NCBI GenBank assembly: GCA_963790475.1
Contig: CAWBOS010000013.1
Location: 1 to 64,000 of the forward strand
Direction of reading: 5' to 3'
Length of the DNA: 64,000 nt
Origin: an uncultured delta proteobacterium
GTDB lineage: Bacteria > Desulfobacterota > RBG-13-43-22
Shown: piece after piece, positions 34,790 through 56,002 of the stretch
Layout of the letters: each line of letters starts with the position of its first letter
Numbering within the stretch: position 1 is the stretch's first letter
Program-made: the position numbers and the translations under genes
The notes under the pieces: model-generated
Told to the model about the DNA's origin: nothing
The model's database searches: none
What the model saw: only the letters and a program-made list of their open reading frames with translations

Positions 34790-35760
34790 TTGCCCAAGAC
34801 TTGCAAGATTTTAAGAGATTTACCCCCAAGACCCTGCCCAAAGAAGAACCTCTGGTTTCCGGACATCGGGCCTGTCAGGGTTGCGGAGAGGTCCTGGCTT
34901 TGCGCCTGGTGGCCAAGGCCATCGGCAGTCCCATGATTGTTATCAGCGCCACCGGGTGCATGGAGATCATCTCCTCACCCTATCCCCAAACCGCCTGGGC
35001 CGTGCCCTGGATTCATGTGGCCTTTGAAAATAGCGCCGCCGTGGCCTCCGGGGTGGAAGTGGGGCTCAAGACCTTGATGGCCAAGGGGCGGATCCCCGAG
35101 AAAAAAATTACCATAGTGGTTTTTGCCGGGGACGGGGGAACCGCCGATATCGGGCTCCAGTCTCTTTCCGGGGCCATGGAACGGGGTCATGATTTTGTCT
35201 ATGTCTGTCTGGATAACGAAGCCTACATGAATACCGGTATTCAACGTTCCAGTTCCACCCCTTTCGGAGCCATGACCACCACTTCACCGGCCGGGAAAAT
35301 TACTGCCGGTCAAACCACCTGGAAAAAAAATCTCCCGGCCATTATGGCTGCTCATAGTATTCCTTATGTGGCCACGGCCTCACCGGCCTATTATGTGGAC
35401 TTGATGAACAAGGCTAAGAAAGCGGCCTTGATCAAAGGCCCCGCTTATCTCCACGTCTACTCTCCTTGTCCGACCGGCTGGCGGCATGGAACGGATCTCG
35501 CCATTGAGGTCAGCCGCCTGGTGGTGGAAACTAATATTTTCCCTTTGTTTGAAGTCATCGAAGGGAAATACCTGGTCCGTAAAAACGCCAAGCCCAAACC
35601 GGTGGAAGACTATCTAAAAGGCCAAAGGCGTTTCAGCCACCTGACCCCGGATTTGATTCAGACCATCCAGAAGCGGGTAGATTTGGAGTTTGAAAAACTC
35701 CTCAAGCTGGAGGCCTGCACCCAGCCTGCGGAGATCAAAGAGGAAGCCAAGAAAGAATAA
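34786..35760 (+). CDS. porB: Pyruvate/2-oxoacid:ferredoxin oxidoreductase beta subunit
   Basis: GHRACQGC, GDGGT.DIG, DNEAYMNTG.QRS and SPCPTGW. Confidence 0.92.
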   Translation: MIAQDLQDFKRFTPKTLPKEEPLVSGHRACQGCGEVLALRLVAKAIGSPMIVISATGCMEIISSPYPQTAWAVPWIHVAFENSAAVASGVEVGLKTLMAKGRIPEKKITIVVFAGDGGTADIGLQSLSGAMERGHDFVYVCLDNEAYMNTGIQRSSSTPFGAMTTTSPAGKITAGQTTWKKNLPAIMAAHSIPYVATASPAYYVDLMNKAKKAALIKGPAYLHVYSPCPTGWRHGTDLAIEVSRLVVETNIFPLFEVIEGKYLVRKNAKPKPVEDYLKGQRRFSHLTPDLIQTIQKRVDLEFEKLLKLEACTQPAEIKEEAKKE

Positions 35761-35829
35761 TTTGAAAACAGAGAAGTTTTGGATTATACTTTTTTCTTTC
35801 TGAAATCCAAAATCCAAACTTAAAACCAT

Positions 35830-35960
35830 TCCCCGGTAGCTCAGTCCCGCTTTTAGCGGGATTTCGCTTATGCTCAATCGGGGGAAGCGGGTAGTCGAAG
35901 CGGAGTGGAGATCCCGCAAACTGCGGGATTAATCCCGCTGCAAGCGGGATTCGAGTCCGT
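35830..35960 (+). pseudogene. Decayed tRNA-Asn copy interrupted by ATCCCGC-N5-GCGGGAT palindromes
   Basis: Exact tRNA 5' 17-mer tccccggtagctcagtc and T-loop ttcgagtccgt, with three palindromes between them. Confidence 0.65.
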
Positions 35961-35995
35961 GAGAAGAACATAGAGGATTAAAACAAGATAATCAT

Positions 35996-36071
35996 TCCCC
36001 GGTAGCTCAGTCGGTAGAGCGGGTGGCTGTTAACCACTTGGTCGGCGGTTCGAGTCCGTCCCGGGGAGCCA
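35996..36071 (+). tRNA. tRNA-Asn (GTT)
   Basis: 76-nt cloverleaf; anticodon loop ctGTTaa, T-loop ggttcgag, encoded CCA. Confidence 0.97.
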
Positions 36072-36206
36072 TTTCGACGCGCAAAAGGGGCATTTTAAAA
36101 CAATGAATGCCCCTTTTGCTTGCTCAAGGCCTCCGGCCGAATAGAAAAAGGCGTCGAAATGGTCCTGAGTTTATCGAAGGGCCAATTATTTTATACCCTA
36201 AACCTT

Positions 36207-36509
36207 ATGCCCGCTTGGCTTTATATCCTCCGGCTCAAATCTGGTGCCTTATACGTTGGCGCCACTACCAACCTGGATCAACGTTATAAAGATCATTGCG
36301 CAGGGAAAGCCTGCCGAACTACAAAGATAGATCCACCCTTAGCCCTCGTTCATTCCGAAGAATTCCAGACAAATAGTGATGCCCGAAAACGTGAGGCTCA
36401 AATAAAACGCTGGACAAGGGTAAAAAAGGAAGCGTTAATAGCAGGTGATCTTGATAAACTGAAACTCCTCTCAAGGTCAAAGAAAAGGATTCCCAGAGAA
36501 GAAGAGTAA
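36207..36509 (+). CDS. Small GIY-YIG nuclease (UPF0213/YazA-like), copy 1
   Basis: WLYIL...LYVG.T.N..QR..H and AR.RE.QIK.W...KK.ALI. Confidence 0.88.
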   Translation: MPAWLYILRLKSGALYVGATTNLDQRYKDHCAGKACRTTKIDPPLALVHSEEFQTNSDARKREAQIKRWTRVKKEALIAGDLDKLKLLSRSKKRIPREEE

Positions 36510-36674
36510 ACCGATTGGGGAAGGAATCCACCGAGTCCGTCCCGGGGGGCCAAAAATATAAGTGAGATGGCTGTAGCTTAAAAACATTATGACAACTTAA
36601 ATTTCGTTTAGGACACATGATTCAAATTGTCAAAGTTAAAGAATTGACCCCTTCCCCTGTTCCGTATTTCCTAG

Positions 36675-38657
36675 CCCATCTTCCGCAGTTAGAAAGCATG
36701 GAAGACGCGATATCAAATAGTTACGACAAGAATTAGGGCATTTTCTTCACTACATTTTCAATAATTTTTGGTTTGTTGGGGAGCAGAATTTTCAATCTCT
36801 GAAGCAGCACTTTGAGTTCCTTTGAGGGAGTAGCCACCATTCTGAGCCGGAGGGTTCTCTCCCGCGCCGGTAGTAGCACATCCAAAGATTTCAATTCCCG
36901 CAACTCCTCCAACAGCTTTCTTGGGGCGGTACCGAGTCCCGAGGCTTTCATCCATTGCTGGAGCGTTCGCCACATAGTCAGCGCCAAGAAGCAGACCAGG
37001 ATATGAGCCTGGGTCCGTTCCTGTTTTTGATGGAAGATCGGTCGCATTCCCAGATCATGTTTCTCGGTACGGAATGAATCTTCCACTTCCGTCAGTTGGA
37101 TGTAGGTATTCCATAGGACTTTCGGGTCACTTTCGGTCCAGTTGGTGCGCAAGATGTAGCTACCGCCGGTCTCCAAGGCCCACTGTTGCCGTTGTTCGTT
37201 CTTCTTGACTTCTAGGGAAAGCGGTGCGTCTTTTCCGGTACCGGTCTCTATGACTGTAATATTGAACAACGAGGCCGCACGTTTATTTTGTTCCAGCAGT
37301 CGCCCTATTCTCCGCTCGACTTTCTGCTTGTCTCGGAGCTTGCCGGTTTCGGCCTGGCGGGCCAGGTGATCCAGTTGGCTTTCCAGTCGGGTCAAAAAGT
37401 GGTTTAGAATGGCGTTTTCTTTCTCCTTCCGGCCTTGAGACCGGCACAGGACAAAGATTTCATCCGTTCCTTCCGGCGAGCAACAGAGCTTGACCTCAAC
37501 ATCAGGTTGGACCGCTTCCCAGTTCTGTTCGAAAAGCTGCTGCTCAAACTTCTTCAGCATCACTTTTGGGGTGCCGACCAAATAGCGGGCACCGACTTTG
37601 CGCATAAACTCCAGATTCTCCTCACTCACCATGCCGCGATCCATAACCCAGATCCGGTTGGCTTGGCCGTATTTGGCCTCCATCATCTGAACCATCTCTT
37701 GGGTCGTCGTAACATCCGGTCGATTGCCGTCAAAAACCTCAAAGGCTATGGGAAAGCCCTCTCGGGTGGCCACCAGGCCGATGCAGACCTGGGGACAATC
37801 TGGACGACTGTCCCGGCTGTAACCCCTCTTGGCCTGGGCATTGCCCTTGGCGGTCCCCTCAAAATAGGTGGAGGTTATGTCATAAAACAAAAAATCAAAG
37901 CTACTGCCGAACAGTTCCCCATAACGCTCCTGAAGGTGACGGCTTAAGGCATCCTTGTGGGGAAGCAAGGCATCCAGGGCACGATAAAGCCGATCCTCAT
38001 TGATCTTATAGTCGGCCACTCCCAGCAGATCGTCTAAGGCCGTCTGGCCATACCAAAACTCGGCCATCTGTAATTCCGACGATGGGGCGCAAAAGCGTCC
38101 AAGAACTAAAATAGACGCCATGATCGACCAAGGAATCTCTTCCCGGTTGGAAGGAATATGATCTCGGCAGAACCTGGCAAGCCCCAGTTTGTTCCACAAA
38201 AGCAACCCCAAATAGACATCGCCGAAGCCTCTGAGTCGCTCGACGCTTACGCCATGGATATTGACCGTGGCCCAAGATGGGGGGTCTTCCCCCTGCTCAA
38301 ACAGTTCAGGTCCAGGTAGAGGCTTTCCGGAAAGAATCCGTCCGATCTCCTCCCAACCTATCCGCTCTTCCCGATCAAGGCCAGGAAGTTTCCCTATCGT
38401 CGCCACTACTCGCTGACGGGGCCCTCGGGCAGTACGGACCGACTCAACTAAAAGCCAGCTCTCGTACTCCGCTCCACCTTTCTTTTTGGTCGCACGCCGG
38501 AGATACATAACCCCATTATCTCCGTTCCCACAGCACCTGGCAAGGGGGTGGTCTTCACTACATCCAATTTTCAAAGATCAGGACTTGAAATCATTTAACA
38601 ATTCCTGAAAATTCATCACGTTTTTCTTGATTTTTTCTCCAAACTGCGGAAGATGGG
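36675..38657 (-). mobile_element. IS1634-family insertion sequence, copy 1 (1983 bp)
   Basis: Terminal IRs cccatcttccgcagtt/aactgcggaagatggg; flanks CTAG and TTAA do not match. Confidence 0.9.
36733..38508 (-). CDS. IS1634-family DDE transposase
   Basis: FYDITSTYFEG, GYSRD.RPD, VMDRGM, VEDSFR..K..L..RPIFH and AHILVCFLA. Confidence 0.92.
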   Translation of the reverse strand: MYLRRATKKKGGAEYESWLLVESVRTARGPRQRVVATIGKLPGLDREERIGWEEIGRILSGKPLPGPELFEQGEDPPSWATVNIHGVSVERLRGFGDVYLGLLLWNKLGLARFCRDHIPSNREEIPWSIMASILVLGRFCAPSSELQMAEFWYGQTALDDLLGVADYKINEDRLYRALDALLPHKDALSRHLQERYGELFGSSFDFLFYDITSTYFEGTAKGNAQAKRGYSRDSRPDCPQVCIGLVATREGFPIAFEVFDGNRPDVTTTQEMVQMMEAKYGQANRIWVMDRGMVSEENLEFMRKVGARYLVGTPKVMLKKFEQQLFEQNWEAVQPDVEVKLCCSPEGTDEIFVLCRSQGRKEKENAILNHFLTRLESQLDHLARQAETGKLRDKQKVERRIGRLLEQNKRAASLFNITVIETGTGKDAPLSLEVKKNEQRQQWALETGGSYILRTNWTESDPKVLWNTYIQLTEVEDSFRTEKHDLGMRPIFHQKQERTQAHILVCFLALTMWRTLQQWMKASGLGTAPRKLLEELRELKSLDVLLPARERTLRLRMVATPSKELKVLLQRLKILLPNKPKIIENVVKKMP

Positions 38658-38823
38658 TTAAAGTGACCGCTACAGGATTTTTACTTTTCGATTGACGAAT
38701 AAGCTCCTTTTGTTCACTCAGAAACCGATAGTCAATACTGCCTGGCCGAAACGGTCTACAATAATAGGCACACTGAAGTGTATCTATGCCATGAAGGAGT
38801 AAATTTATTGATTCTGCGGCCAT
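38658..38823 (-). pseudogene. 5' fragment of a putative rolling-circle replication initiation gene, truncated by IS1634
   Basis: LLLHGIDTLQCAYY N-terminus resembles inovirus-type Rep proteins; frame runs into the IS end; no continuation left of the IS. Confidence 0.5.
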
Positions 38824-39666: not shown

Positions 39667-40686
39667 ATGACGAGCCTATATAGTGATATACAGAAGGCAG
39701 ATATAACTTCAGATCATTTTAAGAGTCCCACCCCAACCCCACCCCGTTACTATCAGACGCGGTTACGATTCACCTCCCATCTTGAAGGAAGTTTAGAAGC
39801 GCTCGGAAAGATTTTGAAACGGTTGGCCGGAATGGACCTCCCGGGGAGAGATCAGGTAGCCGCCTATCTTCGCCACTTAACTCACGGCAATCGCCGACCG
39901 AGAACCCTGTACAGTCGGTTTGGCACCCTCGTTCTTTTTCTGGGACTGATACGGGACACCGGCAAAGGCTTTGAAGCCATTACCCGAAGTGATGTAGAGG
40001 CCTTTATCGAGCGAGAGCAGGACCGGGGGATTAAGATAACGACGATCAGGACCAGGCTGGTGAGTGTGCAGGCCTTTCTCCGCTATCTGGTGGAGGAAGG
40101 GATCGTTTCCGGGGATATATTCCGCAGTCGGAGGATACGGTTGCAGTTACCGGAGCGGCTGCCGCGGGCCATGGATCCTGACGATCTGCAGAAGCTGCTT
40201 TCCGTTATTCATGATATCCGTGACCGAGCTTTGATCCTGGTCTTGTTGCGGACTGGCCTGCGGATCGGCGAGTTGCTTCAGACCAAGATGACCGACGTCC
40301 ATCTCCAGGAGCGGAAGATAGAGATTTACGAAGGGGAGAAGAACCGCCTGGGGAGGGTGGTCTATCTCAGCGACGATGCAGTTATAGCCCTGCGGAAGTG
40401 GTTGAAGAAGAGGAATCCCGGAGAGGAGTACCTGTTCTATGGGAAGAACGTCGAGACTTTGTGTTACAGCACCGCCCGGATCATCTTTCTGCGATATATA
40501 TCCAAGGCGGGATTAGAGGGCAAGGGATATTCCCTGCATACCCTGCGTCACACCTTTGCCACGGAGTTGCTCAACGCCGGCATGCGTCTGGAGTGCCTTC
40601 AGGTCTTGCTGGGACACCGGAGCATCGAGGAGACGCGACGTTATGCCCGGCTGACCGATAAGACCCGGGAGGCAGGAGTATTTTAA
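39667..40686 (+). CDS. Tyrosine recombinase 1 (C-terminal tail apparently frameshifted)
   Basis: TGLRIGE, HTLRHTFAT and LLGHRS..TRRY; an EYFKAM tail is present in a shifted frame. Confidence 0.9.
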   Translation: MTSLYSDIQKADITSDHFKSPTPTPPRYYQTRLRFTSHLEGSLEALGKILKRLAGMDLPGRDQVAAYLRHLTHGNRRPRTLYSRFGTLVLFLGLIRDTGKGFEAITRSDVEAFIEREQDRGIKITTIRTRLVSVQAFLRYLVEEGIVSGDIFRSRRIRLQLPERLPRAMDPDDLQKLLSVIHDIRDRALILVLLRTGLRIGELLQTKMTDVHLQERKIEIYEGEKNRLGRVVYLSDDAVIALRKWLKKRNPGEEYLFYGKNVETLCYSTARIIFLRYISKAGLEGKGYSLHTLRHTFATELLNAGMRLECLQVLLGHRSIEETRRYARLTDKTREAGVF

Positions 40687-40718: not shown

Positions 40719-41606
40719 ATGATCGATGCGATCCTGAACTGGCGGCGATTTTTGAAGCGAAGGAACTGTTCGCCCCATTGCCTGAAGAACTATCTGAACC
40801 TCATTAAACACTTTGTCATCTGGTTGGATGTGCCGGTGGAGGAGGTTACCTCTGCGGTCGTCTCCCGCTACATTGAGCATCTGATGAGGAAGAGACTGGC
40901 GCCCAAGACGGTCAACTGTCACTTAAACGGCATCCGCCAGTTCTACCATTATCTGCGGGACGAAGAAGGTCTGACCATCACCAATCCCATCAGGAAGCAT
41001 CACTTCCAGAAGATGTCCAGGCCCCTTCCCCGGCACCTGAGAGATGAACAGGTGGAGACCTTCTTCCAGGCCATCAAGGGGGCCCGCGACCGGGCCATGT
41101 TCATGCTTATGCTTAGATGCGGGTTACGGGTGGAAGAAGTCGCCCATCTCACCATAGGCGTCATCGACGTCAAGCGCAGGACCATCCTGGTGGAAGACGG
41201 CAAGGGTGGAAAAGACCGGGTCGTCTATATGAGTCATGATGCCCTTCAGGCCCTGACCGCCTATCTGAGGGTGAGGCCTCTATCCAGAGCCAGTAGGATC
41301 TTTCTGGCGGAAAAGGCTCCCTGTAAGGGACAGCCCATTTCCATTCGTGGCATTCAGAGGCGCATGGAATATTATGCCCGCCAAGCGAAGCTCAAGGTGT
41401 CCTGTCATCATCTTCGACACACCATGGCCACCCAGCTGCTCAACGCTGATGCCGATCTCTGCACCATCCAGGATCTCTTGGGTCATAGCAATGTGAAAAC
41501 CACGCAACGGTACTGCCGGATATCAAACCTGAAAGTGCAGAGAGACTACTTCAAGGCCATGGAGGTGATCAGGCTACAAACGGCTGGCAACCCAAATAAT
41601 CCTTGA
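40719..41606 (+). CDS. Tyrosine recombinase 2
   Basis: CGLRVEE, GKGGKDR, HHLRHTMAT and LLGHS..TTQRY. Confidence 0.92.
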   Translation: MIDAILNWRRFLKRRNCSPHCLKNYLNLIKHFVIWLDVPVEEVTSAVVSRYIEHLMRKRLAPKTVNCHLNGIRQFYHYLRDEEGLTITNPIRKHHFQKMSRPLPRHLRDEQVETFFQAIKGARDRAMFMLMLRCGLRVEEVAHLTIGVIDVKRRTILVEDGKGGKDRVVYMSHDALQALTAYLRVRPLSRASRIFLAEKAPCKGQPISIRGIQRRMEYYARQAKLKVSCHHLRHTMATQLLNADADLCTIQDLLGHSNVKTTQRYCRISNLKVQRDYFKAMEVIRLQTAGNPNNP

Positions 41607-41825
41607 CAAAAGAACTAAACTATGAAATTTTAAACAGTACCTAACCCATTAACTTCAATAAGAAAATCAGATTTTAGTACGTATAGCTTCCTGTAGTCTT
41701 GTAAGTTCCATTTGTGAAAAATCCAAAGACTTCAAATACAAATCAATTTGCAAGGTCCATTCCTGCAAAGTCCCTTTTTCTTCAGAAGCCCCCTCTGTAC
41801 CCTTTCCTTGGCCCCTTTTTTCGCC

Positions 41826-41958
41826 TTGACCGCGTTCTTTTTCTTGTTATAATCAGACCATCAAAAAGAAACTTTTATCATACGCTTGAGGCATATCATC
41901 CCTCCCTTTGTTGGATCATATACCTTATATTGACATGATATTTTGGGGCTGTTAAACC
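41826..41958 (+). promoter_or_regulatory. Two sigma70-type promoters facing the cassette (Pc-like)
   Basis: TTGACC-N16-TATAAT (41826-41853) and TTGACA-N17-TAAACC (41930-41958). Confidence 0.5.
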
Positions 41959-41975: not shown

Positions 41976-43634
41976 GAGTCTGTCGGACTTAAATGTTTTA
42001 TAGTCAAAATTTTATTTAAGAAGAGAAAAATCTCTTGGTTAAATCTAAGTTTTATGGTAGAATATAAAACTAATTCAATAAGTTAAATTAACATTTTTTA
42101 TAATTTTATGACCACACCAAGAGAGCCACATGAACCCTCCACGATTTAAGTGTTGTGACCGTGACACCCTATACCTTTTGCCTCCCTCTATCCACGATTG
42201 GCTTCCGGAAAATCATCTGGCCCGTTTTATTGTGGAGGTAGTAATCAAACTTGATTTAAGGCCTATTGAAAATGCGTACAATGGCCGGGGTTCCGATGCC
42301 TATTCTCCTGCTATGATGCTGGCCTTGCTTTTTTACGGTTATGCGACCGGGGTTTTCTCCAGCCGCAAACTGGAATTGGCCACCTATGAGTCGGTAGCTT
42401 TTCGTTATATTACCGCCAACCAGCATCCGGATCATGACACCATTGCTGGTTTCCGGAAACGTTTTTTGGAGGAATTAAAGCCGCTATTCACCCAAATCCT
42501 GATGATTGCCCAAACTATGGGTATAGTCAAGTTGGGCCAGGTGGCTTTAGACGGAACCAAAATCAAAGCCAATGCCTCCAAACATAAGGCCTTGAGTTGG
42601 GATCATGCCTGTAAACTGGAACAACAGATCCGGGCCGAGGTCGATGCGCTCTTACGTCAGGCCGAAGCAGCGGAACGAGAAGAGATTCCTGACGGGATGA
42701 ACATCCCGGAGGAATTGGGTCGAAGAGAAAAACGCCTTCAGACTATTGACCTGGCCAAGCAAGAGATCGAACGTCGCGCTGCGGAGCGTTATGCCAAAGA
42801 ACAAGAAATCTACGACCAGAAGAGGGCCGCCCGTAAAGCCAAAGAGCAAGAAAGTGGTAAAAAACCCAAGGGACGTAAACCTGAACCACCCGAGCCCGGT
42901 CCTAAAAAAAACGACCAAATGAATCTAACCGATGAAGACTCCCGGATTATGCCTGCTGCCGGAGGAACCTTTGAACAAGCTTACAACGCTCAAGCCGGCG
43001 TGGATCTGAATACCATGCTCATCGTAGAAAATCATGTCACTCAACAACCCAATGACAAGCAAGAAATTGAAAATACCTTGGGAAATCTGACTTCCTTACC
43101 AAACCAGTTAGGCACGGTTGACACATTAGTAGCCGACTCAGGCTATTTTAGCGAAACCAATCTGAATAAGTGTGAAGCCGAGCAGATCACCCCCTATATT
43201 GCTGTAAATCGTGAAGAACACAATATTCCCTTAGAAGAACGTTTTGCCCGGCCTGAACCTTTACCGGAAGATGCTGATGTGCTGACCCGAATGAAGCATC
43301 GGCTAAAAACACCCGAGGGCAAAAAGATATACGCCCAGCGGAAAAGCACGGTCGAACCGGTATTTGGCATCATCAAGGCCATCATGGGCTTTCGACAATT
43401 TTTCCTTCGAGGGTTAACAGCGGTCAGTGGTGAATGGAACTTAGTCTGCATGGCCTACAATTTAAAAAGAATGCATATCTTAGCCCATTAATAATAATGA
43501 CCGAGCAATTGCAAGGAAAAATTGTCGAAAAAAGCTTGATATCTTTATTGTTGAACTAAAAACCCCTTTGATCCTCTAAGAAAAAATCCGATCCCTTTTG
43601 TATAATAATTATGAGTTTCAAGACCGACAAACTC
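41976..43634 (+). mobile_element. IS1182-family insertion sequence
   Basis: IRs gagtctgtcgg/ccgacaaactc; catag duplicated at 41971-41975 and 43635-43639. Confidence 0.88.
42130..43491 (+). CDS. IS1182-family transposase
   Basis: LPENHLARF, FSSRKLE, LDGTKIKANA, ADSGY and VEPVFG.IK. Confidence 0.93.
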   Translation: MNPPRFKCCDRDTLYLLPPSIHDWLPENHLARFIVEVVIKLDLRPIENAYNGRGSDAYSPAMMLALLFYGYATGVFSSRKLELATYESVAFRYITANQHPDHDTIAGFRKRFLEELKPLFTQILMIAQTMGIVKLGQVALDGTKIKANASKHKALSWDHACKLEQQIRAEVDALLRQAEAAEREEIPDGMNIPEELGRREKRLQTIDLAKQEIERRAAERYAKEQEIYDQKRAARKAKEQESGKKPKGRKPEPPEPGPKKNDQMNLTDEDSRIMPAAGGTFEQAYNAQAGVDLNTMLIVENHVTQQPNDKQEIENTLGNLTSLPNQLGTVDTLVADSGYFSETNLNKCEAEQITPYIAVNREEHNIPLEERFARPEPLPEDADVLTRMKHRLKTPEGKKIYAQRKSTVEPVFGIIKAIMGFRQFFLRGLTAVSGEWNLVCMAYNLKRMHILAH

Positions 43635-43675: not shown

Positions 43676-45650
43676 GTAGAGTAGAGAGCTGGAACCTGAC
43701 TGGTGCCACTTTTGGTCTTTCCGATGCACGCATCTACTACGAGCTATAGTGGTCAGCCGGGGCCAGCCCTCCCTCATCAAACCGTGCATGCGGTTTTCCC
43801 GCACACGGCTTTCCGATGTCCTTCACCGCAGGGCATGCGCTTTGTCCAGCCCGCCGAAGTCGGCACCTTGTAGAGACCGTACTTCTCGTATAGCGCCCTT
43901 CGTTTGAACCTGAGATACCCCATCTTTCTATCTCTGACCTTGTGCCGCTTTCGCAGGTGTGTGATCAACCGCTCTTCCACATGCCCCCGTATCCGAGCCA
44001 GTGTGGTACTGCAATTGCGGTAATGAAAGTAGCCGACCCATCCCCGCACGGTGGCGTTAACTTCATTCACCACCCACTCGATAGGCATAATGGTTCGGGA
44101 TCGATCCGTAATTGCCGTCACTCGGTCTTTGATAGATTGTATGGCTTTCTTTGAAGGTTGGACGTGAGGGTAGTACTTCCCCGTTCTATTGCTCCGTCCC
44201 ATCCGGATCGTATATCCAAGGAAGTTGTAACTCCCTTTGTAGGCATTGACGGTCTTCGTCTTGGCCTCGTTCAGGGTAAGCCCCAGTTTCGCCAGTATCC
44301 GTCGCAGCATCTGCATCGGGCGTTCGGTTCCGCACCGGCAGAGGACAACAATATCGTCCGCATAGCGCACGATCCGTGCCCCGAGTTTCTTCTCCAACTG
44401 ATGCCGTTCCCATATCCTGTCCATTAGATGCAGGTACAGGTTCGCCAATATTGGTGAGATTACCCCCCCTTGCGGGGTGCCTTGACGGTTTTCCTTGCCA
44501 CCGCCGATGTTCTTTTTCTTTCCATCCTGGTCCACTTCCATGACCGGGGCTTTGAGCCACATCTTGATGATGCGCAATATCTCACCATCACTGATCCGCT
44601 CGGCAACTACAGCCAGGAGGTTGGCGTGGGGAATGGTATCGAAGTATTTGCTCAGATCGGCGTCGATGATCTCCGTGTACCCTCTATGCATGGCCGAGGC
44701 TACATCATCAACGGCGTCGTGGGCTGACTTCCTGGGCCTAAACCCGTATGAGCTGTCGCAAAAGTCTGCTTCAAAGATCGGTTCGATGACCAGCTTTACG
44801 GCCATCTGGGCTACCCGGTCCCGTATCGTCGGTATACCCAATGGCCTTTTGTCACCGTTGGCCTTGGGTATCATCACCCGCTTTACCGGGTCCGGTCGAT
44901 AAGTCTTGCTCTTCAGTGCTTCTTCCAACTCCGCCATAAAGGCGGTTATCCCTTCTTCCGTCTCGATAGCCTCAAAGGTAACTCCGTCTATTCCGGCGCT
45001 CCCTTTATTGGCCCGGACAAGACTGTAGGCATGACTGAGAATGTCCGCCCGGTACACCTTGTCATATAAGGCGTAGAAACGATAGGCTTTCTCCTGCTTG
45101 GCCTTCCGGTAGAGCTTCCTCTGTAGTGTCCTGATACTTTCCGGGGTTGTTAGCATCGCTGCAATCCCCTCTCCCTCCACTCTTCGGTTACTTGAACAAA
45201 GCAGGGTCCCTTCCCTCGGGCCGGGTTTTGTTGTCCCTTGCCCTCAAGCGGTACTATGAACCCCTCCGACTCCCGATACGGCCCAATACGATTTCGTCTC
45301 CTTATACGTATCGGTTGATGTTCCTCTTCCATCACCTCATCGGGTCTCCAGCACTGGACTGTTTATCTTCCACCGCATGCCGTCCTTGCTACCCCGGAAG
45401 ATCTCAAAGGCTGCTTCCGTTTTCCAAGCCCTTAACATCGGCCTTCCCCATATGTCCACTGGGTCGGCATCTTCACTTTATATTTACGAGGCTACCTATT
45501 GGTTCATTTCCATTACGGCCTGTGGCTTTGCCAATTGGGAACTTACGACCCCCGGTTACCCGAACGCCGCTCCCTTGATCTACCGGGGTGAACGGACAAC
45601 TCCCCGGACGGGACTTTAACCCGTAAGTGTAAACAGTTGTTACTGCGTAC
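43676..45650 (-). mobile_element. Group II intron (~1975 nt)
   Basis: 5' GTACGC; domain V aagccgtgtgcgggaaaaccgcatgcacggtttg; domain VI ending ctctactctac; internal RT ORF. Confidence 0.9.
43777..45156 (-). CDS. ltrA: Group II intron reverse transcriptase/maturase (no endonuclease domain)
   Basis: RPLGIPTIRDR, SYGFRP, GTPQGG.ISP and RYADD; maturase GWVGYF. Confidence 0.93.
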   Translation of the reverse strand: MLTTPESIRTLQRKLYRKAKQEKAYRFYALYDKVYRADILSHAYSLVRANKGSAGIDGVTFEAIETEEGITAFMAELEEALKSKTYRPDPVKRVMIPKANGDKRPLGIPTIRDRVAQMAVKLVIEPIFEADFCDSSYGFRPRKSAHDAVDDVASAMHRGYTEIIDADLSKYFDTIPHANLLAVVAERISDGEILRIIKMWLKAPVMEVDQDGKKKNIGGGKENRQGTPQGGVISPILANLYLHLMDRIWERHQLEKKLGARIVRYADDIVVLCRCGTERPMQMLRRILAKLGLTLNEAKTKTVNAYKGSYNFLGYTIRMGRSNRTGKYYPHVQPSKKAIQSIKDRVTAITDRSRTIMPIEWVVNEVNATVRGWVGYFHYRNCSTTLARIRGHVEERLITHLRKRHKVRDRKMGYLRFKRRALYEKYGLYKVPTSAGWTKRMPCGEGHRKAVCGKTACTV

Positions 45651-45691: not shown

Positions 45692-46558
45692 ATGACGGAA
45701 CATATGCCAACTCGAAACGAAGTACTCGATGCAATTCGTAGAGCTGGACAAGCTCTTGGTCAACCATTGTCACGCTCCAAGTTTCGTTCACACTCAGGAA
45801 TGACTGAATATCAAGTGCTGACGCACTTCCAAAGTTGGAGAGCAGCACTTAAAGCAGCCGGAATGCAATCTGATGATACAAACATACGTATTGATGATGT
45901 TGAACTACTTCAAGATTGGGGGGAGTTAGTCCGGAAGAATCGAGAAATACCAACAAGACATCAATACAGACGCGAAGGCAATTTCGGTGTTAATACCTTC
46001 GCAAGTCACTTTGGTCCATGGTCCTCGATTCCTGACTCTTTCCGAAGGTTCGCTATGGGCAAACCTGAATGGGCTGATGTTATTGCCCTCATGCCTCAGC
46101 CCCCGTCTCAACTACCAACTCCATCACAGCAAAACGAAATAGCACCCGAAATTAACGTATTTCCATCACTCCCGTCTGGCGTTCATCCTACCAAGTTAGA
46201 CAGTAGCCCAACCTATGGGAATCCAATTGACTTTCGGGGCATGAGGCATGAACCAATAAATGAAAACGGTGTAATTTTTCTTTTTGGTATGGTGGCAATG
46301 GAACTTGGATATTATGTTGAGGCTGTTCAAGCAGGTTTCCCAGACTGCGAAGCCAAGAGGCAGATTTCCGCCGGAAAATGGCAACGCGTCCGTATTGAAT
46401 TTGAATACGAAAGCCGCAATTTCAGAGATCACGGACATTCGCCCCAAGGCTGTGACCTTATCGTCTGTTGGCGTCACAATTGGTCTGATTCTCCACAAAC
46501 AATTGAGATCCTGGAACTTATGCAAGTGATCAAACAATTATCAAAATCTGATGACTGA
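45692..46558 (+). CDS. Gene cassette protein: two homing-endonuclease-associated-repeat-like units plus a PD-(D/E)XK-like nuclease domain
   Basis: Repeats ending HFQSW..ALKAAG and HFGPW; C-terminal FPDCEAKR..RIEFEYESRNF..HGH..CDLIVCW. Confidence 0.65.
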   Translation: MTEHMPTRNEVLDAIRRAGQALGQPLSRSKFRSHSGMTEYQVLTHFQSWRAALKAAGMQSDDTNIRIDDVELLQDWGELVRKNREIPTRHQYRREGNFGVNTFASHFGPWSSIPDSFRRFAMGKPEWADVIALMPQPPSQLPTPSQQNEIAPEINVFPSLPSGVHPTKLDSSPTYGNPIDFRGMRHEPINENGVIFLFGMVAMELGYYVEAVQAGFPDCEAKRQISAGKWQRVRIEFEYESRNFRDHGHSPQGCDLIVCWRHNWSDSPQTIEILELMQVIKQLSKSDD

Positions 46559-46563
46559 CATAA

Positions 46564-46620
46564 GCCCAACAAGCAAATCCACCGGACCCTCGTTCCTCGG
46601 GCCGGTGATTATTTCGTTAA
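46564..46620 (+). other. Integron attC site (~59 bp), cut at R' by IS1634
   Basis: R'' GCCCAAC just after the stop codon; imperfect palindrome aaatccaccggacc...gggccggtgattattt with extrahelical bases; R' GTT at 46616. Confidence 0.8.
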
Positions 46621-48603
46621 CCCATCTTCCGCAGTTAGAAAGCATGGAAGACGCGATATCAAATAGTTACGACAAGAATTAGGGCATTTTCTTCACTACA
46701 TTTTCAATAATTTTTGGTTTGTTGGGGAGCAGAATTTTCAATCTCTGAAGCAGCACTTTGAGTTCCTTTGAGGGAGTAGCCACCATTCTGAGCCGGAGGG
46801 TTCTCTCCCGCGCCGGTAGTAGCACATCCAAAGATTTCAATTCCCGCAACTCCTCCAACAGCTTTCTTGGGGCGGTACCGAGTCCCGAGGCTTTCATCCA
46901 TTGCTGGAGCGTTCGCCACATAGTCAGCGCCAAGAAGCAGACCAGGATATGAGCCTGGGTCCGTTCCTGTTTTTGATGGAAGATCGGTCGCATTCCCAGA
47001 TCATGTTTCTCGGTACGGAATGAATCTTCCACTTCCGTCAGTTGGATGTAGGTATTCCATAGGACTTTCGGGTCACTTTCGGTCCAGTTGGTGCGCAGGA
47101 TGTAGCTACCGCCGGTCTCCAAGGCCCACTGTTGCCGTTGTTCGTTCTTCTTGACTTCTAGGGAAAGCGGTGCGTCTTTTCCGGTACCGGTCTCTATGAC
47201 TGTAATATTGAACAACGAGGCCGCACGTTTATTTTGTTCCAGCAGTCGCCCTATTCTCCGCTCGACTTTCTGCTTGTCTCGGAGCTTGCCGGTTTCGGCC
47301 TGGCGGGCCAGGTGATCCAGTTGGCTTTCCAGTCGGGTCAAAAAGTGGTTTAGAATGGCGTTTTCTTTCTCCTTCCGGCCTTGAGACCGGCACAGGACAA
47401 AGATTTCATCCGTTCCTTCCGGCGAGCAACAGAGCTTGACCTCAACATCAGGTTGGACCGCTTCCCAGTTCTGTTCGAAAAGCTGCTGCTCAAACTTCTT
47501 CAGCATCACTTTTGGGGTGCCGACCAAATAGCGGGCACCGACTTTGCGCATAAACTCCAGATTCTCCTCACTCACCATGCCGCGATCCATAACCCAGATC
47601 CGGTTGGCTTGGCCGTATTTGGCCTCCATCATCTGAACCATCTCTTGGGTCGTCGTAACATCCGGTCGATTGCCGTCAAAAACCTCAAAGGCTATGGGAA
47701 AGCCCTCTCGGGTGGCCACCAGGCCGATGCAGACCTGGGGACAATCTGGACGACTGTCCCGGCTGTAACCCCTCTTGGCCTGGGCATTGCCCTTGGCGGT
47801 CCCCTCAAAATAGGTGGAGGTTATGTCATAAAACAAAAAATCAAAGCTACTGCCGAACAGTTCCCCATAACGCTCCTGAAGGTGACGGCTTAAGGCATCC
47901 TTGTGGGGAAGCAAGGCATCCAGGGCACGATAAAGCCGATCCTCATTGATCTTATAGTCGGCCACTCCCAGCAGATCGTCTAAGGCCGTCTGGCCATACC
48001 AAAACTCGGCCATCTGTAATTCCGACGATGGGGCGCAAAAGCGTCCAAGAACTAAAATAGACGCCATGATCGACCAAGGAATCTCTTCCCGGTTGGAAGG
48101 AATATGATCTCGGCAGAACCTGGCAAGCCCCAGTTTGTTCCACAAAAGCAACCCCAAATAGACATCGCCGAAGCCTCTGAGTCGCTCGACGCTTACGCCA
48201 TGGATATTGACCGTGGCCCAAGATGGGGGGTCTTCCCCCTGCTCAAACAGTTCAGGTCCAGGTAGAGGCTTTCCGGAAAGAATCCGTCCGATCTCCTCCC
48301 AACCTATCCGCTCTTCCCGATCAAGGCCAGGAAGTTTCCCTATCGTCGCCACTACTCGCTGACGGGGCCCTCGGGCAGTACGGACCGACTCAACTAAAAG
48401 CCAGCTCTCGTACTCCGCTCCACCTTTCTTTTTGGTCGCACGCCGGAGATACATAACCCCATTATCTCCGTTCCCACAGCACCTGGCAAGGGGGTGGTCT
48501 TCACTACATCCAATTTTCAAAGATCAGGACTTGAAATCATTTAACAATTCCTAACAATTCATCACGTTTTTCTTGATTTTTTCTCCAAACTGCGGAAGAT
48601 GGG
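46621..48603 (-). mobile_element. IS1634-family insertion sequence, copy 2 (1983 bp)
   Basis: Near-identical to copy 1; TTAA on both flanks. Confidence 0.92.
46679..48454 (-). CDS. IS1634-family DDE transposase
   Basis: Protein identical to copy 1 in the ORF track. Confidence 0.92.
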   Translation of the reverse strand: MYLRRATKKKGGAEYESWLLVESVRTARGPRQRVVATIGKLPGLDREERIGWEEIGRILSGKPLPGPELFEQGEDPPSWATVNIHGVSVERLRGFGDVYLGLLLWNKLGLARFCRDHIPSNREEIPWSIMASILVLGRFCAPSSELQMAEFWYGQTALDDLLGVADYKINEDRLYRALDALLPHKDALSRHLQERYGELFGSSFDFLFYDITSTYFEGTAKGNAQAKRGYSRDSRPDCPQVCIGLVATREGFPIAFEVFDGNRPDVTTTQEMVQMMEAKYGQANRIWVMDRGMVSEENLEFMRKVGARYLVGTPKVMLKKFEQQLFEQNWEAVQPDVEVKLCCSPEGTDEIFVLCRSQGRKEKENAILNHFLTRLESQLDHLARQAETGKLRDKQKVERRIGRLLEQNKRAASLFNITVIETGTGKDAPLSLEVKKNEQRQQWALETGGSYILRTNWTESDPKVLWNTYIQLTEVEDSFRTEKHDLGMRPIFHQKQERTQAHILVCFLALTMWRTLQQWMKASGLGTAPRKLLEELRELKSLDVLLPARERTLRLRMVATPSKELKVLLQRLKILLPNKPKIIENVVKKMP

Positions 48604-48924
48604 TTAATCACTCTTTCAAACGGAAATCATCAAATTTTTGTGTTTGATGGCCTCCAAATTAGTAGGTGGAAGTTCTGATAGAATTACGACATCGATATAT
48701 TTTCTTCCCATTGCCCATTCTCATCTTTCCGGGCGAGCCAAAGCTTGAAAAAGGCCCGATATTCGGGCCTTTTTCTTCAATATCACTGCCCTTGACTTTG
48801 CCATTTTCTTCCTTGACCCTATTTCTTCATTACCTTATACTCGGTTTATCCTGATAACTTCTGATCAATAAAGAGTTTTTCACTATTAAGGGAATTTATC
48901 CGGGCTCGCGGAGGTAATGTTATT

Positions 48925-50094
48925 ATGTATATCACGAATTTAAAGTTGAAAAACTGGCGCAACTTTCATGAAGCGGAGGTCCTTTTAACTCAAACCTCTT
49001 ATATCATCGGGCCGAATGCCTCTGGGAAATCAAACCTTCTTGATGTCCTACGATTTCTCCGCGATGTCTGCAAGCCTGCTGGCGGCGGGCTTCAAAAGGC
49101 AGTGAAGGACCGAGGTGGAATAACTAAGCTCCGCTGTCTTCATGCCCGGCGCGACCCGGAAGTAAAAATTGAGGTCTCTATTTCTGAACGTGTCGATGAT
49201 CCATCCTTTGCCTGGCGGTATATACTAGGTTTGAAGTCGGAAGGTAAGGGTGCTCAACGCCTCATTGTTTCAATCGAGGAGGTCTGGCAAAGGGATAAGC
49301 AGATTCTTAAACGCCCTGATAGCGATGACCTCAAGGATGACCGATTGCTCACGGAAACCCATTTGGAACAGACCAGGGCTAACGCCAATTTCCGAGAAAT
49401 TGTGGATTTCTTTAGTGGTATCACCTACCTCCATCTGGTTCCCCAATTGTTAAAGTATGGTGATAAGATCGGAGGTAACCGGTTGGAAGATGATCCCTTT
49501 GGTCAGGGTTTCCTTGAGAGGGTGGCCAAAAGTCAGGTGAAGACCCGCGAGGCGCGGCTAAAGAAGATTAATGAAGTCCTGTCGATTGCCGTTCCTCAGT
49601 TCAAAGAACTACATTTTGCCCAGGACAAAGTAACTGGAATGCCCCACCTTGAAGCCCTTTATGAGCATTATCGGCCCAATGCGGGATGGCAGCGTGAAGA
49701 TCAGTTCTCAGATGGCACCTTAAGAATCCTGGGTATACTATGGTCTCTTCTCGAAGGAAATTCTTTGCTTCTCATAGAAGAGCCCGAACTTTCACTCCAT
49801 CAAGCTGTGGTAGAACAGTTGCCGGCCCTGATAGAACGTACCCAGCGCTCCAGTAAGCAGCAACGCCGTCAGATTATCATAAGCTCTCACAGCGAGGCAC
49901 TGCTTAGTAACAAAGGTATAGACGCCCGCAGTGTAGTTGTTTTGGAACCCAGTCATGAAGGTACGAAACCCCGCACAGTGAACGAAGCAGAAAAGAAAGG
50001 CCTTGATGCCGGTTTTTCTGTAGCGGAGGTGGTATTGCCCCAAACACGCCCGAAACGAATCGAGCATATGGGGCAGATGAGGCTTTGGGAATGA
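48925..50094 (+). CDS. ABC-type (AAA_21/AAA_15-like) ATPase
   Basis: Walker A GPNASGKS, signature FSDGTLR, Walker B LLIEEPE, H-loop SSHS. Confidence 0.88.
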   Translation: MYITNLKLKNWRNFHEAEVLLTQTSYIIGPNASGKSNLLDVLRFLRDVCKPAGGGLQKAVKDRGGITKLRCLHARRDPEVKIEVSISERVDDPSFAWRYILGLKSEGKGAQRLIVSIEEVWQRDKQILKRPDSDDLKDDRLLTETHLEQTRANANFREIVDFFSGITYLHLVPQLLKYGDKIGGNRLEDDPFGQGFLERVAKSQVKTREARLKKINEVLSIAVPQFKELHFAQDKVTGMPHLEALYEHYRPNAGWQREDQFSDGTLRILGILWSLLEGNSLLLIEEPELSLHQAVVEQLPALIERTQRSSKQQRRQIIISSHSEALLSNKGIDARSVVVLEPSHEGTKPRTVNEAEKKGLDAGFSVAEVVLPQTRPKRIEHMGQMRLWE

Positions 50095-50696: not shown

Positions 50697-51722
50697 ATAA
50701 ATTTTATGGTGATGGAGTAACGGCCGGTATCTCAGGATGGCATCTAATCCGAAGGAATAATTTCCGATCCTGGGAATTACCAGGCTTACACCAGACTTAG
50801 AACCGAGTTAAAGGGTAGCCTTTTGGATAAGGACGGACAGAAGTTTATCCAGAGCGACGGTTCAAAAAATTATCGTATCTCCACCCATCCGGACTTTATT
50901 ACCTACGATAGGAATAAACTCCTAAATCACCCAGGCATCAGAGTCAGGGACCTTGCCAAAAAATTGCCCTAACGGGCTTAGACACATTTACCAGGGTTGA
51001 AAGGAGGCAACAATTAAAGATCGCCTTAGCCGGTATCGACACCCTTGAAGAATTGGCTTTGGCGAGGAAAACTTTCTATCGCCGGTGGGCCCGAGACAAA
51101 GCGGTATTCGATCAGGCAATGGAAAAGGCAAAAAGGGACCAACGTGCTCTCGAAGATAAAAAGTACGACAAACCACCACAGAGAAAGAGGAAGGGAAATT
51201 AACGAAACATTGAAGCCAATCGCAGATAGTACGGGCACTATCTGATCCCCATGATTTTGCTATAGCTCGACAGGAAGAAACTATGAACCTTTGCTTGCAC
51301 TAGTAAATTACGGATTTGTACTTGATGTTCCGAGGCAATTTGACGGCTTTGCCAGATTGAATATCGTTCATTGAACGCAACAAATTGATTTTTCAATAAT
51401 AATATTTTTGGAAATGAGACGGATTCGTGTATGCCCCTTGATAGTCTTTTCCATCTCAAGCCCCAGCCCATCCCACAAAAGCACGCTTTGGGATACCAAT
51501 CCGGGAAGCCATTTCGACGCGCAAAAGGGGCATTTCAAAACAATGAATGCCCCTTTTGCTTGTCCTTCGATAAACTCAGGATTCCGAGCAGGTCGAGGAA
51601 CTCAAGGCCTCCGGCCGAATAGATAAAGGCGTCGAAATGATCCTGAGCCTATGGTCCTGAGCCTGTCGAAGGACCTGTCGAAGGACTTATCGAAGGGCCA
51701 ATTATTTTATGCCTTAAACCTT

Positions 51723-52025
51723 ATGCCTGCCTGGCTCTATATCCTCCGACTCAAATCTGGTGCCTTATACGTTGGCGCTACTACCAACATAGAACAACGC
51801 TACAAAGACCATCTTTCAGGAAATGCCTGTCGAACTACTAATCTTGATCCCCCAGTTGCCTTAATCCATTCCGAAGAATTCCATTCATTCAGTGATGCCC
51901 GAAAACGTGAGGCTCAAATAAAACGCTGGACAAAGGTAAAAAAGCAAGCGTTAATCGCCGGTGATCTTGAGAAACTGAAACTTCTCTCAAGGTCAAAGAA
52001 AAGGATTCCCAGAGAAGAAGAGTAA
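51723..52025 (+). CDS. Small GIY-YIG nuclease, copy 2
   Basis: 100 aa; 15 differences from copy 1 by manual count; same leader and trailer. Confidence 0.88.
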   Translation: MPAWLYILRLKSGALYVGATTNIEQRYKDHLSGNACRTTNLDPPVALIHSEEFHSFSDARKREAQIKRWTKVKKQALIAGDLEKLKLLSRSKKRIPREEE

Positions 52026-52160
52026 ACCGATTGGGGGTGGAGGGCACCTCTTGCCGAGCTTGCGACGAATAACGGCTATTTTCGACGCAATAAATGCGGA
52101 GAATGTTCTTGCTTTTGCGGTGAATAAGCAGCATAATATCCGCCAGGAGCGCGGAGAATT

Positions 52161-53504: not shown

Positions 53505-53563
53505 CTCGGAAACTGAAACTCTTATCAAAGTCAACGAGAAGGATTCCCGGAGAACAAGAGTAG
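53505..53563 (+). pseudogene. 3' remnant of a third GIY-YIG copy
   Basis: RKLKLLSKSTRRIPGEQE* followed by the same gattgggg..ggaatccac trailer and the tRNA 3' copy. Confidence 0.75.
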
Positions 53564-53984
53564 ATCGATTGGGGGGTGGAATCCACCGAGTCCGTCCCGG
53601 GGAGCCATTCGGCACGCGTAAGGGGCACACCATTTAAATGGGTGCCCCTTTTCGCTACTCATGGCAGGCCATTTCGAATTAAAGCTATTGCGAGCGTGTT
53701 GAATGGACCTGAGCCTATGGTTCTGAGCCTACGGTCCTGAGCTCGTCGAAGGATCTGTCAAAGGACCTGTCGAAGGATATCTTAAGTCCTTTTTTTGTGT
53801 CTGAAATATTGTTCCAACCCGCTTTCCAACCTGTTTCACCAAAAACAAAAAAAGCCGGTAAGGTTCCCCCAACCGGTCTTTTAAATATCAACGTTCGGCT
53901 TCCTGTTTGAAAATGCTAAGACTTTCTGATATTATCCAGAAAACTGTTCATTAGTTTGTTAGAAATTCATTAAGGAGGAGAATT

Positions 53985-54494: not shown

Positions 54495-54845
54495 ACCGTT
54501 TCGTTAGAGAAATCGGATGCGGGCCGTTTTGCTCAATTTCAACCAGTAATCGTTCGCTTTCAGGTCTATCTTTTTAAAATATTCGCAGGTTCAAACTTCT
54601 CTCTAAACACCCCCCCGCCTCCTATACGCCCCCAGGATCAACGATCTCCCAAGGCGCCCGAGTCAAATTTATTGACTTTTTGTCTACTAAAGGATAGGTA
54701 ATTTTAGTTCATTAACCAAATTTTCTTGTTGGCAACCTTTAACCAAGGAGTGTCGATGGAGCGAAAAAAGACCCCATTTCTCGGATGAGCGGTGGGGTTT
54801 TGAGTTTAAGATGATTTAATAAAAACAAATATTATTAAAAATATC

Positions 54846-55990: not shown

Positions 55991-56002
55991 ATTGCGTCCA
56001 CT

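Follow-up and report, generated by a model that had tools for sequence, protein, structure and literature searches.

The cassette unit behind tRNA-Asn and its copies

The window analysed here is a stretch of 64,000 nucleotides (nt) of contig CAWBOS010000013.1, and directly behind its only tRNA gene it carries a small unit with a lone GIY-YIG nuclease gene, which is the subject of this work. The genome to which the contig belongs (labelled G000) is rated 9.68% contaminated. Among sequencing runs the best DNA run contains a share of 0.11 of the words sampled from the stretch, and no RNA run is listed for it. The tRNA gene, a tRNA-Asn(gtt), was called by ARAGORN and matches the Rfam tRNA model with 68.1 bits (for positions see Table 1). 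Its final 20 nt are found again at 36533-36552 with one mismatch and at 53588-53607 without mismatch. These three matches in the window compare with 0.01 expected, and none of 100 shuffles reached three.

The unit itself (36072-36552) is 481 bp long and consists of a leader of 135 nt, an open reading frame (ORF, 36207-36509), a trailer and a 21-nt copy of the tRNA end. This arrangement had been described in a first-pass annotation of the window, and coordinates, Pfam score and fold all agree with it. A second copy lies at 51501-52037, where the leader is 92-97% identical and the gene DNA 86% identical to the first copy. Its protein is intact and shares 85 of 100 residues, which corresponds to the 15 differences noted before. 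The third copy (53505-53607), also seen as described, is a 3' remnant of the gene with trailer and perfect tRNA end, followed by a diverged leader without a gene. A leader without a gene is present in another genome of the family (G011) as well.

The unit extends beyond the 481 bp, as a pseudo-tRNA (35826-35960) is located 5' of the live tRNA-Asn. It is preceded by the native upstream flank, its fold has a z-score of -4.27, and orthologous pseudo-tRNAs are present in G010, G008, G013, G002 and G014. For the left flank of the second copy an origin from an insertion sequence (IS) transposase was considered and dropped, since on reading it turned out to consist of a hairpin and a degenerate tRNA end, a junction that is also found before the homologous gene of G034, which belongs to another family.

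Empty and filled tRNA-Asn loci within the family

The tRNA-Asn gene was found in 20 of the 21 genomes of the family and 18 of these loci were read. A GIY-YIG gene or a remnant of it lies directly behind the tRNA in 11 loci, one locus has the leader only (type A, G011) and six have neither. According to the nuclease, three types were distinguished: type A is present in G000, G002, G017, G019 and G020, type B in G007, G008, G014 and G015 with a stump in G004, and type C in G006. A copy of the tRNA end 3' of the gene was detected in G000, G006, G007, G008, G014 and G020. No cassette is found at the tRNA-Asn of G001, G005, G009 and G010, while G003 and G013 carry a classical island at this site. 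In G013 the ORF adjoining the tRNA has phage-integrase N-terminal domains, and in G003 the tRNA 3' part is repeated as an uninterrupted stretch of 41 nt.

Empty and filled alleles, which the first-pass annotation had proposed to look for, are found in G005 and G008. Both flanks are common to the two genomes, the downstream flank being about 93% identical by eye. In G005 the tRNA-Asn is followed by the native flank. In G008 the native upstream flank is joined to a 5' pseudo-tRNA, after which come a spacer of 41 nt, the live tRNA, a terminator hairpin, the type-B gene and finally a 3' pseudo-tRNA that adjoins the native downstream flank. The boundaries are precise and the live tRNA is identical in both alleles. 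The gene downstream of the tRNA in G005 is located on a different contig in G000, with no tRNA beside it. Tandem copies, which had been proposed as well, occur in G006 and G068 (locus L153), and G210 has two adjacent type-B genes.

Distribution of the cassettes across bacteria

Miniature insertion cassettes of this kind form a widespread family at tRNA genes, to which the 481-bp unit belongs. Each has a lone gene for a UPF0213-like GIY-YIG protein of about 70-100 amino acids (aa; types A, B and C), which follows immediately 3' of a tRNA gene and has the same orientation. A type-A alignment yielded 80 loci in a bacterial set with a single genome for each species; the majority of the genomes are metagenome bins, and counts over related genomes are not independent. 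In 47 of the 80 loci a tRNA on the same strand ends 52-472 nt upstream of the gene (cut-off 600 nt). For a random gene the chance to be found in such a position would be far below 1% by our own rough estimate. The tRNAs are mostly Asn, but Gln, Val, Ala, Lys, Ser, SeC, Met, Phe and Leu also occur. Among the 33 loci without such a tRNA, 10 have less than 620 nt of contig upstream of the gene and several more abut fragments of tRNA-Asn that ARAGORN does not call. The hosts belong to the Thermodesulfobacteriota, Nitrospirota, Omnitrophota, Ignavibacteriota, Bacteroidota, Planctomycetota, Verrucomicrobiota, Lentisphaerota, Patescibacteria and others.

Of 301 genomes sampled in the phylum, 30 contain type B (E ≤ 1e-8), and 21 of the 30 loci are linked to a tRNA (Asn, Asp or Ala). 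The association of homologous genes with tRNAs, on which the earlier proposal depended, holds for both types. At tRNA-Ala the type-B gene starts only 15-23 nt past the CCA. In 13 of the 21 linked loci a 14-mer copy of the own tRNA end (at most one mismatch) follows 36-140 nt past the gene, and the resulting type-B units measure 325-536 bp. For type A outside the family of the window, 5 of 45 loci match at least 13 of the 14 tRNA-end bases compared to 0 of 2067 control windows; one of these is at a tRNA-Leu and in one the copy is a whole second tRNA-Ser. The distal copy matches the tRNA upstream, be it Asn, Asp, Ala or Leu. A regenerated tRNA end recurs around a lone gene for a nuclease of about 100 aa at several tRNA species and in many phyla.

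In the loci scanned, 75 ORFs of at least 200 aa lie up to 4 kb downstream. Each Pfam family is represented in at most four of these ORFs, and Phage_integrase is missing from the families that are represented at least twice. Neither the 481-bp unit nor the type-B units of 325-536 bp contain a recombinase gene, and in the relatives the unit is not confined to the end of integrase-bearing islands. The unit had been called integrase-free, and this is right for the unit and its relatives, as no integrase recurs nearby. It is not right for the array in the window, which includes two Xer-like recombinases, two IS copies, another transposase gene and a group II intron.

In a protein tree of 103 sequences, calculated with a quick method, the tRNA label is clustered, with 43 changes versus a mean of 61 after shuffling and 0 of 200 shuffles as low. 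The core clade of type A (support 99) comprises 22 loci at tRNA-Asn, one at tRNA-Val and one at tRNA-Gln. Near relatives can be found on different tRNAs, like L053 on Asn and L055 on Gln.

Pseudo-tRNAs with hairpins in place of tRNA arms

The distal copy comprises between 11 nt and nearly the whole tRNA, as its start varies from the D arm to the last 11 nt. The duplicated 3' end of the first-pass annotation is thereby confirmed insofar as the copy matches the own tRNA; it is often not a simple end, but a partial or nearly whole tRNA with hairpins for arms. These hairpins of dead tRNA copies have the form GTCCCGCC..GGCGGGATT and are sited where tRNA arms belong. The type-B distal copy spans the D arm to the CCA, and a GC hairpin stands exactly in place of the anticodon arm. 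This substitution is seen at tRNA-Asp (L152, L156, L149) and at tRNA-Ala (L148, L150, L151, L153, L154). In the tRNA-Asn distal copies of L143 and G008 both the anticodon and the T arm are replaced by hairpins.

A 5' pseudo-tRNA within 400 nt upstream of the live tRNA is present in 8 of 21 type-B and 3 of 45 type-A loci, compared to one match in 583 kb of control sequence. It consists of the acceptor 5' strand, the D arm and the same hairpin, and the two pseudo-halves overlap by about 30-40 nt around the hairpin. As the distal look-alikes have no 5' acceptor strand and the proximal ones no 3' strand, neither folds as a tRNA alone. In L136 (G164:C46) a full-length pseudo-tRNA bearing the hairpin is located upstream of the gene and the live tRNA downstream. 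ARAGORN reports a tRNA-Phe(aaa) in this locus, which is a false call caused by a tRNA-Asn copy with a CCCGCC hairpin for the anticodon stem. Hairpin-armed pseudo-tRNAs explain a class of odd tRNA-like calls.

The genome G000 has 80 TCCCGC..GCGGGA hairpins where about 3 are expected. It also has dozens of copies of a nested palindromic repeat, ggattccggctggagtcta-TCCCGCAC..GTGCGGGA-ccggaatgac (e.g., C1:91837 and C12:679250).

The type-A leader

As a single strand the leader of the window has a folding energy of -32.7 kcal/mol (z = -6.96), which none of 200 shuffles attained. Helix P1, formed by CCATTTCGACGC paired with GCGTCGAAATGG, encloses a terminator-like hairpin (36083-36118), and 3' of P1 the leader has the R hairpin of the form GGTCCTGAG..TCGAAGGGCC. 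The type-A leader is kept across phyla and tRNA species and starts at the tRNA CCA. Its blocks are, in order, CCA(T)TTCGAC, a hairpin, GCTCA(A/T)GG, GTCGAA(A)TGGCCCTGAGC and nested CCYGAGC..GTCGARGG hairpins. P1 spans the CCA to the first GTCGAA with 8-18 bp, and its variable part covaries. An extension of at least 3 bp past the 6-bp core is found at 10 of 16 P1 sites versus 5 of 43 other GTCGAA sites in the same leaders. R hairpins are also located 3' of the gene in 8 of 68 loci, compared to 68 of 3040 control windows.

No known RNA was found in Rfam for leader, trailer or pseudo-tRNA, neither at the gathering threshold over the whole window nor at E-values up to 5 over 35780-36680. The type-A leader is a new structured element that is absent from Rfam and begins at the CCA of a tRNA. 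A ribozyme-like element was considered for the CUGAG/CGAA motifs and dropped, as Rfam gave no match. That the R motif is a genome-wide repeat was rejected as well, as a loose pattern has 6 matches in 6.34 Mb, two of them in leaders. The only promoter-like site in 35650-36700 lies at 35762-35790, 5' of the pseudo-tRNA, and such sites are no more numerous here than in shuffles.

The GIY-YIG protein

Proteins P0001 and P0002 match the Pfam GIY-YIG domain (PF01541) with 58.9 and 58.6 bits, respectively, at a cut-off of 22.6. Protein length is 68-108 aa over the three types, and no other Pfam domain is found; for types B and C the identity to P0001 is only 27-43%. In 11 sequences of the three types R26, H30 and E63 are invariant, and Y6, Y16 and G18 are at least 90% conserved. 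Y6, Y16, R26, H30 and E63, i.e., the tyrosines of GIY and YIG with Arg, His and Glu, we take to be the catalytic residues, also in view of the SsnA mutants described below. Between the two copies in the window the ratio of nonsynonymous to synonymous substitution rates (dN/dS), a comparison suggested with the first-pass annotation, is 0.21. Judged from conserved residues and purifying selection the nuclease looks functional.

The profile A1 matches the solved UPF0213 proteins 1zg2 (BH0048, E = 2.2e-18) and 1ywl (EF2693, E = 2.6e-15), and only weakly the N-domain of UvrC and SLX1. No NCBIfam model names the type-A or type-C proteins. The type-B protein reaches 21.7 bits with the NCBIfam model of a group I intron endonuclease, which is below the cut-off of 56.05. 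In collections of plasmids and phages only distant relatives with less than 45% identity were found (34 plasmid and 5 phage records), and no vector with a type-A gene was among them.

Comparison with known systems

The closest known family are the site-specific Ssn single-strand DNA nucleases (cd10448), single-domain GIY-YIG enzymes of 94 aa like SsnA from Neisseria meningitidis (Chenal et al., 2025, PMC11893778). According to that paper, a hairpin repeat (NTS/SRM) is bound by these enzymes exclusively in the form of single-stranded DNA, the cut is placed a few bases 5' of it, and SsnA does not bind RNA. The ssn genes are flanked by their own repeat, for which the authors use the term IS-like, and the mutants Y6A, Y17A and E64A mark the catalytic residues of SsnA (PMC11893778). 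The cassettes share with this family the single GIY-YIG domain of similar size, with Y6, Y16 and E63 in place of Y6, Y17 and E64 of SsnA, and a gene flanked by own hairpin repeats. The Ssn recognition site, GTC followed by a GC-rich palindrome, can also be listed as shared. However, the cassettes are tied to tRNA genes, whereas the word tRNA does not occur in the main text of PMC11893778. Their hairpins lie inside tRNA-derived arms or the leader instead of in hundreds of dispersed copies, and in the sections considered Ssn is described as modulating transformation and not as part of a mobile cassette.

In the genome G000, 193 sites fit the SRM pattern (44 per Mb versus 3 in a shuffle; consensus CGTCAYYCCGGCGAAAGCCGGRRTCCAG). 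A small GIY-YIG gene of this genome (C12:272018-272306), which looks frameshifted in an A-run, is flanked by SRM sites (C12:271732-272427). Profile A1 is homologous to it, with an hhalign probability of 95.5% (E = 1.6e-8, 31% identity over 59 columns). Further small GIY-YIG ORFs of G000 are located at C10:931314-931547 and, frameshifted, at C10:238396-238631. The cassette hairpins of the form given above, the R motif and GTCGAAAT-GGCCCT..AGGGCC resemble the SRM pattern but do not fit it. Since they are off-pattern and the island has no SRM site, we file the proteins as UPF0213-like and working like Ssn, and single-strand cutting is proposed by analogy.

Homing GIY-YIG endonucleases combine the catalytic domain with DNA-binding modules and have about 200 aa or more, and the Seg proteins are reportedly larger and equipped with DNA-binding modules, too. 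In difference, the cassette protein is a bare catalytic domain of 100 aa. SegB of the T4 tRNA cluster is similar in being encoded by a free-standing GIY-YIG gene near tRNA genes (PMC2330249). Phage homing endonucleases of this kind also share presence/absence alleles with the cassettes and spread by break repair on flanking homology (PMC2330249). Seg genes are not known to leave a duplicated target, whereas the cassettes bring along tRNA-derived arms and often a live tRNA inside pseudo-tRNA halves.

With the integrase islands at tRNA sites the cassettes have in common the tRNA 3' part as site, the distal direct repeat, tandem arrays and small members without integrase. Integrase-less derivatives of such islands accrete in tandem, like the cis-mobilisable elements of streptococcal integrative and conjugative elements and the tycheposon satellites. 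However, no integrase family accompanies the cassettes and their sole gene always encodes a GIY-YIG nuclease. Their repeats vary in length, hold hairpins for arms and are joined by 5' pseudo-tRNA halves.

The elements of the IS200/IS605 and REP/RAYT type act on hairpins in single-stranded DNA and insert beside a fixed short sequence, and their HUH tyrosine transposases rejoin the DNA. The combination of one small gene with flanking hairpins and the insertion beside a fixed short sequence are similar in the cassettes (the discussion of PMC11893778 draws the comparison with such elements), and by analogy the substrate of the cassettes is likely single-stranded DNA. A GIY-YIG hydrolase cannot rejoin DNA, so that rejoining of a cassette would need host repair on tRNA homology. 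In the literature searched no paper was found that links small GIY-YIG genes to bacterial tRNA 3' ends or pseudo-tRNAs.

Interpretation and alternative explanations

Among the small GIY-YIG nuclease systems with associated hairpins the cassettes represent a new variant, which is linked to tRNAs, and they are probably minimal mobile cassettes of a new kind. Our preferred reading is a nuclease-driven, homology-armed cassette that targets tRNA genes, to which we assign a probability of about 0.5. The nuclease would start the event, as in Ssn, by cutting single-stranded DNA at a distance of a few bases 5' of its own hairpin. The tRNA-derived pieces would then serve as homology arms, by which homology-directed repair or recombination could bring the cassette into any gene copy of the same tRNA or exchange that copy for it. 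Read-through from the tRNA promoter may provide for expression of the gene, with the leader or the terminator hairpin as a gate. In the window several units would have accreted at the tRNA-Asn, with the IS copies, Xer-like recombinases, group II intron and defence-like genes lodged between them later. If the nuclease drives insertion, this would be a minimal route of site-specific DNA insertion that relies on host repair, and it would give a part of the tiny UPF0213/Ssn-like nucleases a biological role. Hairpin-guided single-strand cutters with tRNA-length homology arms could also serve as tools.

A more far-reaching version can be put forward tentatively, at somewhat less than even odds. The cassettes would then be a new class of autonomous, tRNA-specific mobile elements in bacteria of about 350-750 bp, whose sole protein is a bare GIY-YIG domain cutting single-stranded DNA at a hairpin. 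Their ends would be disabled tRNA halves with arms swapped for the hairpin of the nuclease, often with a live replacement tRNA between them. Replacement of the tRNA would be triggered by the nuclease and directed by homology, across phyla and with neither integrase nor transposase, and arrays of such cassettes would seed islands.

Several points weigh against the nuclease-driven cassette. Cleavage and movement are inferred from sequence and neither was observed. Only about one in ten type-A loci outside the family keeps a distal copy, so that the insertion of most is deduced from position alone. The protein has no DNA-binding domain beyond the catalytic fold, the R motif is rare genome-wide, and the published SRM pattern has no match in the island (C13:30000-60000). 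As CCCGC hairpins are a general repeat of G000, some of those in the dead tRNA copies could be secondary invasions, and why arms were swapped for hairpins rather than lost is unexplained. Because the live tRNA is the same in filled and empty alleles, classical homing, in which only the empty allele is cut, fails to explain immunity. The integrase at the tRNA-Asn of G013 and the two recombinases in the window make mobilisation in trans possible.

Genomic islands classically land in tRNA genes, and in the textbook case an integrase is responsible. Derivatives of integrative elements that have no integrase are passengers and are integrated in trans. The cassettes could likewise be non-autonomous passengers inserted by a tRNA-specific tyrosine integrase from elsewhere, encoded on a classical island of the same cell or of a donor, with the GIY-YIG gene as cargo, e.g., for an Ssn-like restriction of or defence against single-stranded DNA. 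Integrase sites are classically recognised by such a direct repeat of the tRNA 3' part, the genus has classical islands at tRNA-Asn (the phage-type integrase of G013 and the 41-nt repeat of G003), and two recombinases are present in the array. However, we regard this as unlikely. Passengers should carry varied cargo, but all mini-units seen have the GIY-YIG gene alone, and no integrase recurs within 4 kb. Cassettes of the same design stand at Asn, Asp, Ala, Gln, Leu and further tRNAs, and the tRNA label goes with the clade of the nuclease. The distal copies start variably and hold hairpins for arms, in contrast to G003 with its uninterrupted repeat. Furthermore, phage-type integrases are the usual users of tRNA sites, whereas the recombinases of the window are Xer-like.

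It is equally improbable in our view that the gene is a resident, itself immobile Ssn-like gene on a tRNA promoter, whose surroundings were shaped by unequal crossing-over, repeat deletion, invasion of hairpin repeats and island traffic. This would suit the 40 of 45 type-A loci outside the family without a clear distal end copy, the genome-wide CCCGC hairpins and SRM-like sites of G000, the role of tRNA-Asn as a hot spot for other elements in the genus, and the sole promoter-like site upstream of the pseudo-tRNA, although the count of such sites is at shuffle level. Against it, type-A proteins that are 55-74% identical, with leaders conserved at the nucleotide level, are found at tRNA-Asn in Thermodesulfobacteriota, Nitrospirota, Omnitrophota, Bacteroidota, Ignavibacteriota, Planctomycetota, Lentisphaerota and others. 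Such similar cassettes at the same tRNA in many phyla argue for horizontal transfer to the same site. A resident gene would also not account for three nuclease types (B and C so distant from P0001) at one site in sister species, for the precise boundaries in G005 and G008, and for close relatives like L053 and L055 at different tRNAs.

A role at the RNA level, with the leader as cis-regulatory or processing element, the look-alikes, which have no anticodon, as tRNA mimics (decoys or antitoxin-like) for a tRNA-acting nuclease and the location as a by-product of recombination, would agree with a covarying P1 that starts at the CCA and has some G.U-type pairs on the sense strand only, with hairpins of like size that replace tRNA arms precisely under retention of the tRNA-like layout, and with a gene on the strand of the tRNA that in type B starts so close to the CCA of tRNA-Ala, but it is the least probable explanation, as the half look-alikes each have only one acceptor strand, no known RNA family was matched in Rfam and SsnA, the one tested relative, does not bind RNA in the sections of PMC11893778 considered.

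None of these three alternatives explains as much of the pattern as the nuclease-driven cassette. For the minimal mobile element at tRNA 3' ends, as initially postulated, the widespread one-gene cassettes and the empty and filled alleles are in agreement. On this view the nuclease, and not a recombinase in trans or host recombination, would be the mover and would cut tRNA ends.

Other mobile DNA in the array

The positions of the cassette features and of the other mobile DNA are summarized in Table 1.

Table 1. Cassette features and other mobile DNA in the window.
Feature	Position	Strand	Remarks
5' pseudo-tRNA-Asn	35826..35960	+	first 18 nt of tRNA, three TCCCGC..GCGGGA hairpins, D-arm-like piece, T-loop piece
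Live tRNA-Asn(gtt)	35996..36071	+	ARAGORN, Rfam
Structured leader	36072..36206	+	helix P1, terminator-like hairpin 36083-36118, R hairpin
GIY-YIG nuclease gene, copy 1	36207..36509	+	100 aa, type A, UPF0213-like, single domain
Trailer and 21-nt tRNA 3'-end copy	36510..36552	+	end copy 36532-36552, 1 mismatch
IS copy 1	36672..38661	-	DDE_Tnp_1 transposase of 613 aa, inverted ends of 19-20 nt; 120 nt past the unit
Two tandem Xer-like tyrosine recombinases	39667-40686 and 40719-41606	+	Pfam Phage_integrase, ~1e-39 each
Further DDE transposase gene	42130-43491		
Group II intron	43676..45617	-	reverse transcriptase/maturase ORF 43777-45180
IS copy 2	46617..48607	-	identical to IS copy 1 over the compared stretch
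Hairpin ATCCCA..TGGGAT and degenerate tRNA end tccgggaagcca	51470..51511	+	distal arm of a lost preceding unit
Leader copy 2	51512..51722	+	insert and additional R hairpins
GIY-YIG gene copy 2 and truncated trailer	51723..52037	+	gene 51723-52025, intact
Third GIY-YIG 3' remnant, trailer and perfect 21-nt tRNA end	53505..53607	+	tRNA end 53587-53607
Leader copy 3, geneless	53608..53790	+	diverged hairpin, P1 with G.T pairs, R hairpins

The two recombinase genes sit between the second and third copy of the tRNA end, and both proteins are below every NCBIfam equivalog cut-off. The pair may belong to an element of the recombinase-in-trio type that was cut by the neighbouring transposase gene; a small ORF (41714-41938) has no Pfam match. 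Both IS copies are about 1990 bp long with a spacing of 9946 bp, and the N-terminal part of their transposase is DUF4277-like. The IS pair could bracket a composite transposon that takes in the recombinases and the intron. The group II intron, either cargo or a later invader, looks complete, with Rfam matches for D1-D4 at 45382-45617 and for the 3' end at 43676-43813. An adjoining ORF (45692-46558) has two homing-endonuclease-associated repeats (Pfam HNH_repeat).

Further downstream an AAA_21 ATPase gene (AbiEii-like) and a DUF4276 gene form what looks like a defence pair (48925-50696), and a Fic/DUF4172 gene (52161-53264) lies between the second and third GIY-YIG copies. At 54610-56271 a C-rich repeat of about 38 nt (CCCCCCCGCC..CCCAGGATCAACGATCT) is present three times, around the ORF 54846-55502 and an HNH endonuclease ORF (55499-55990).

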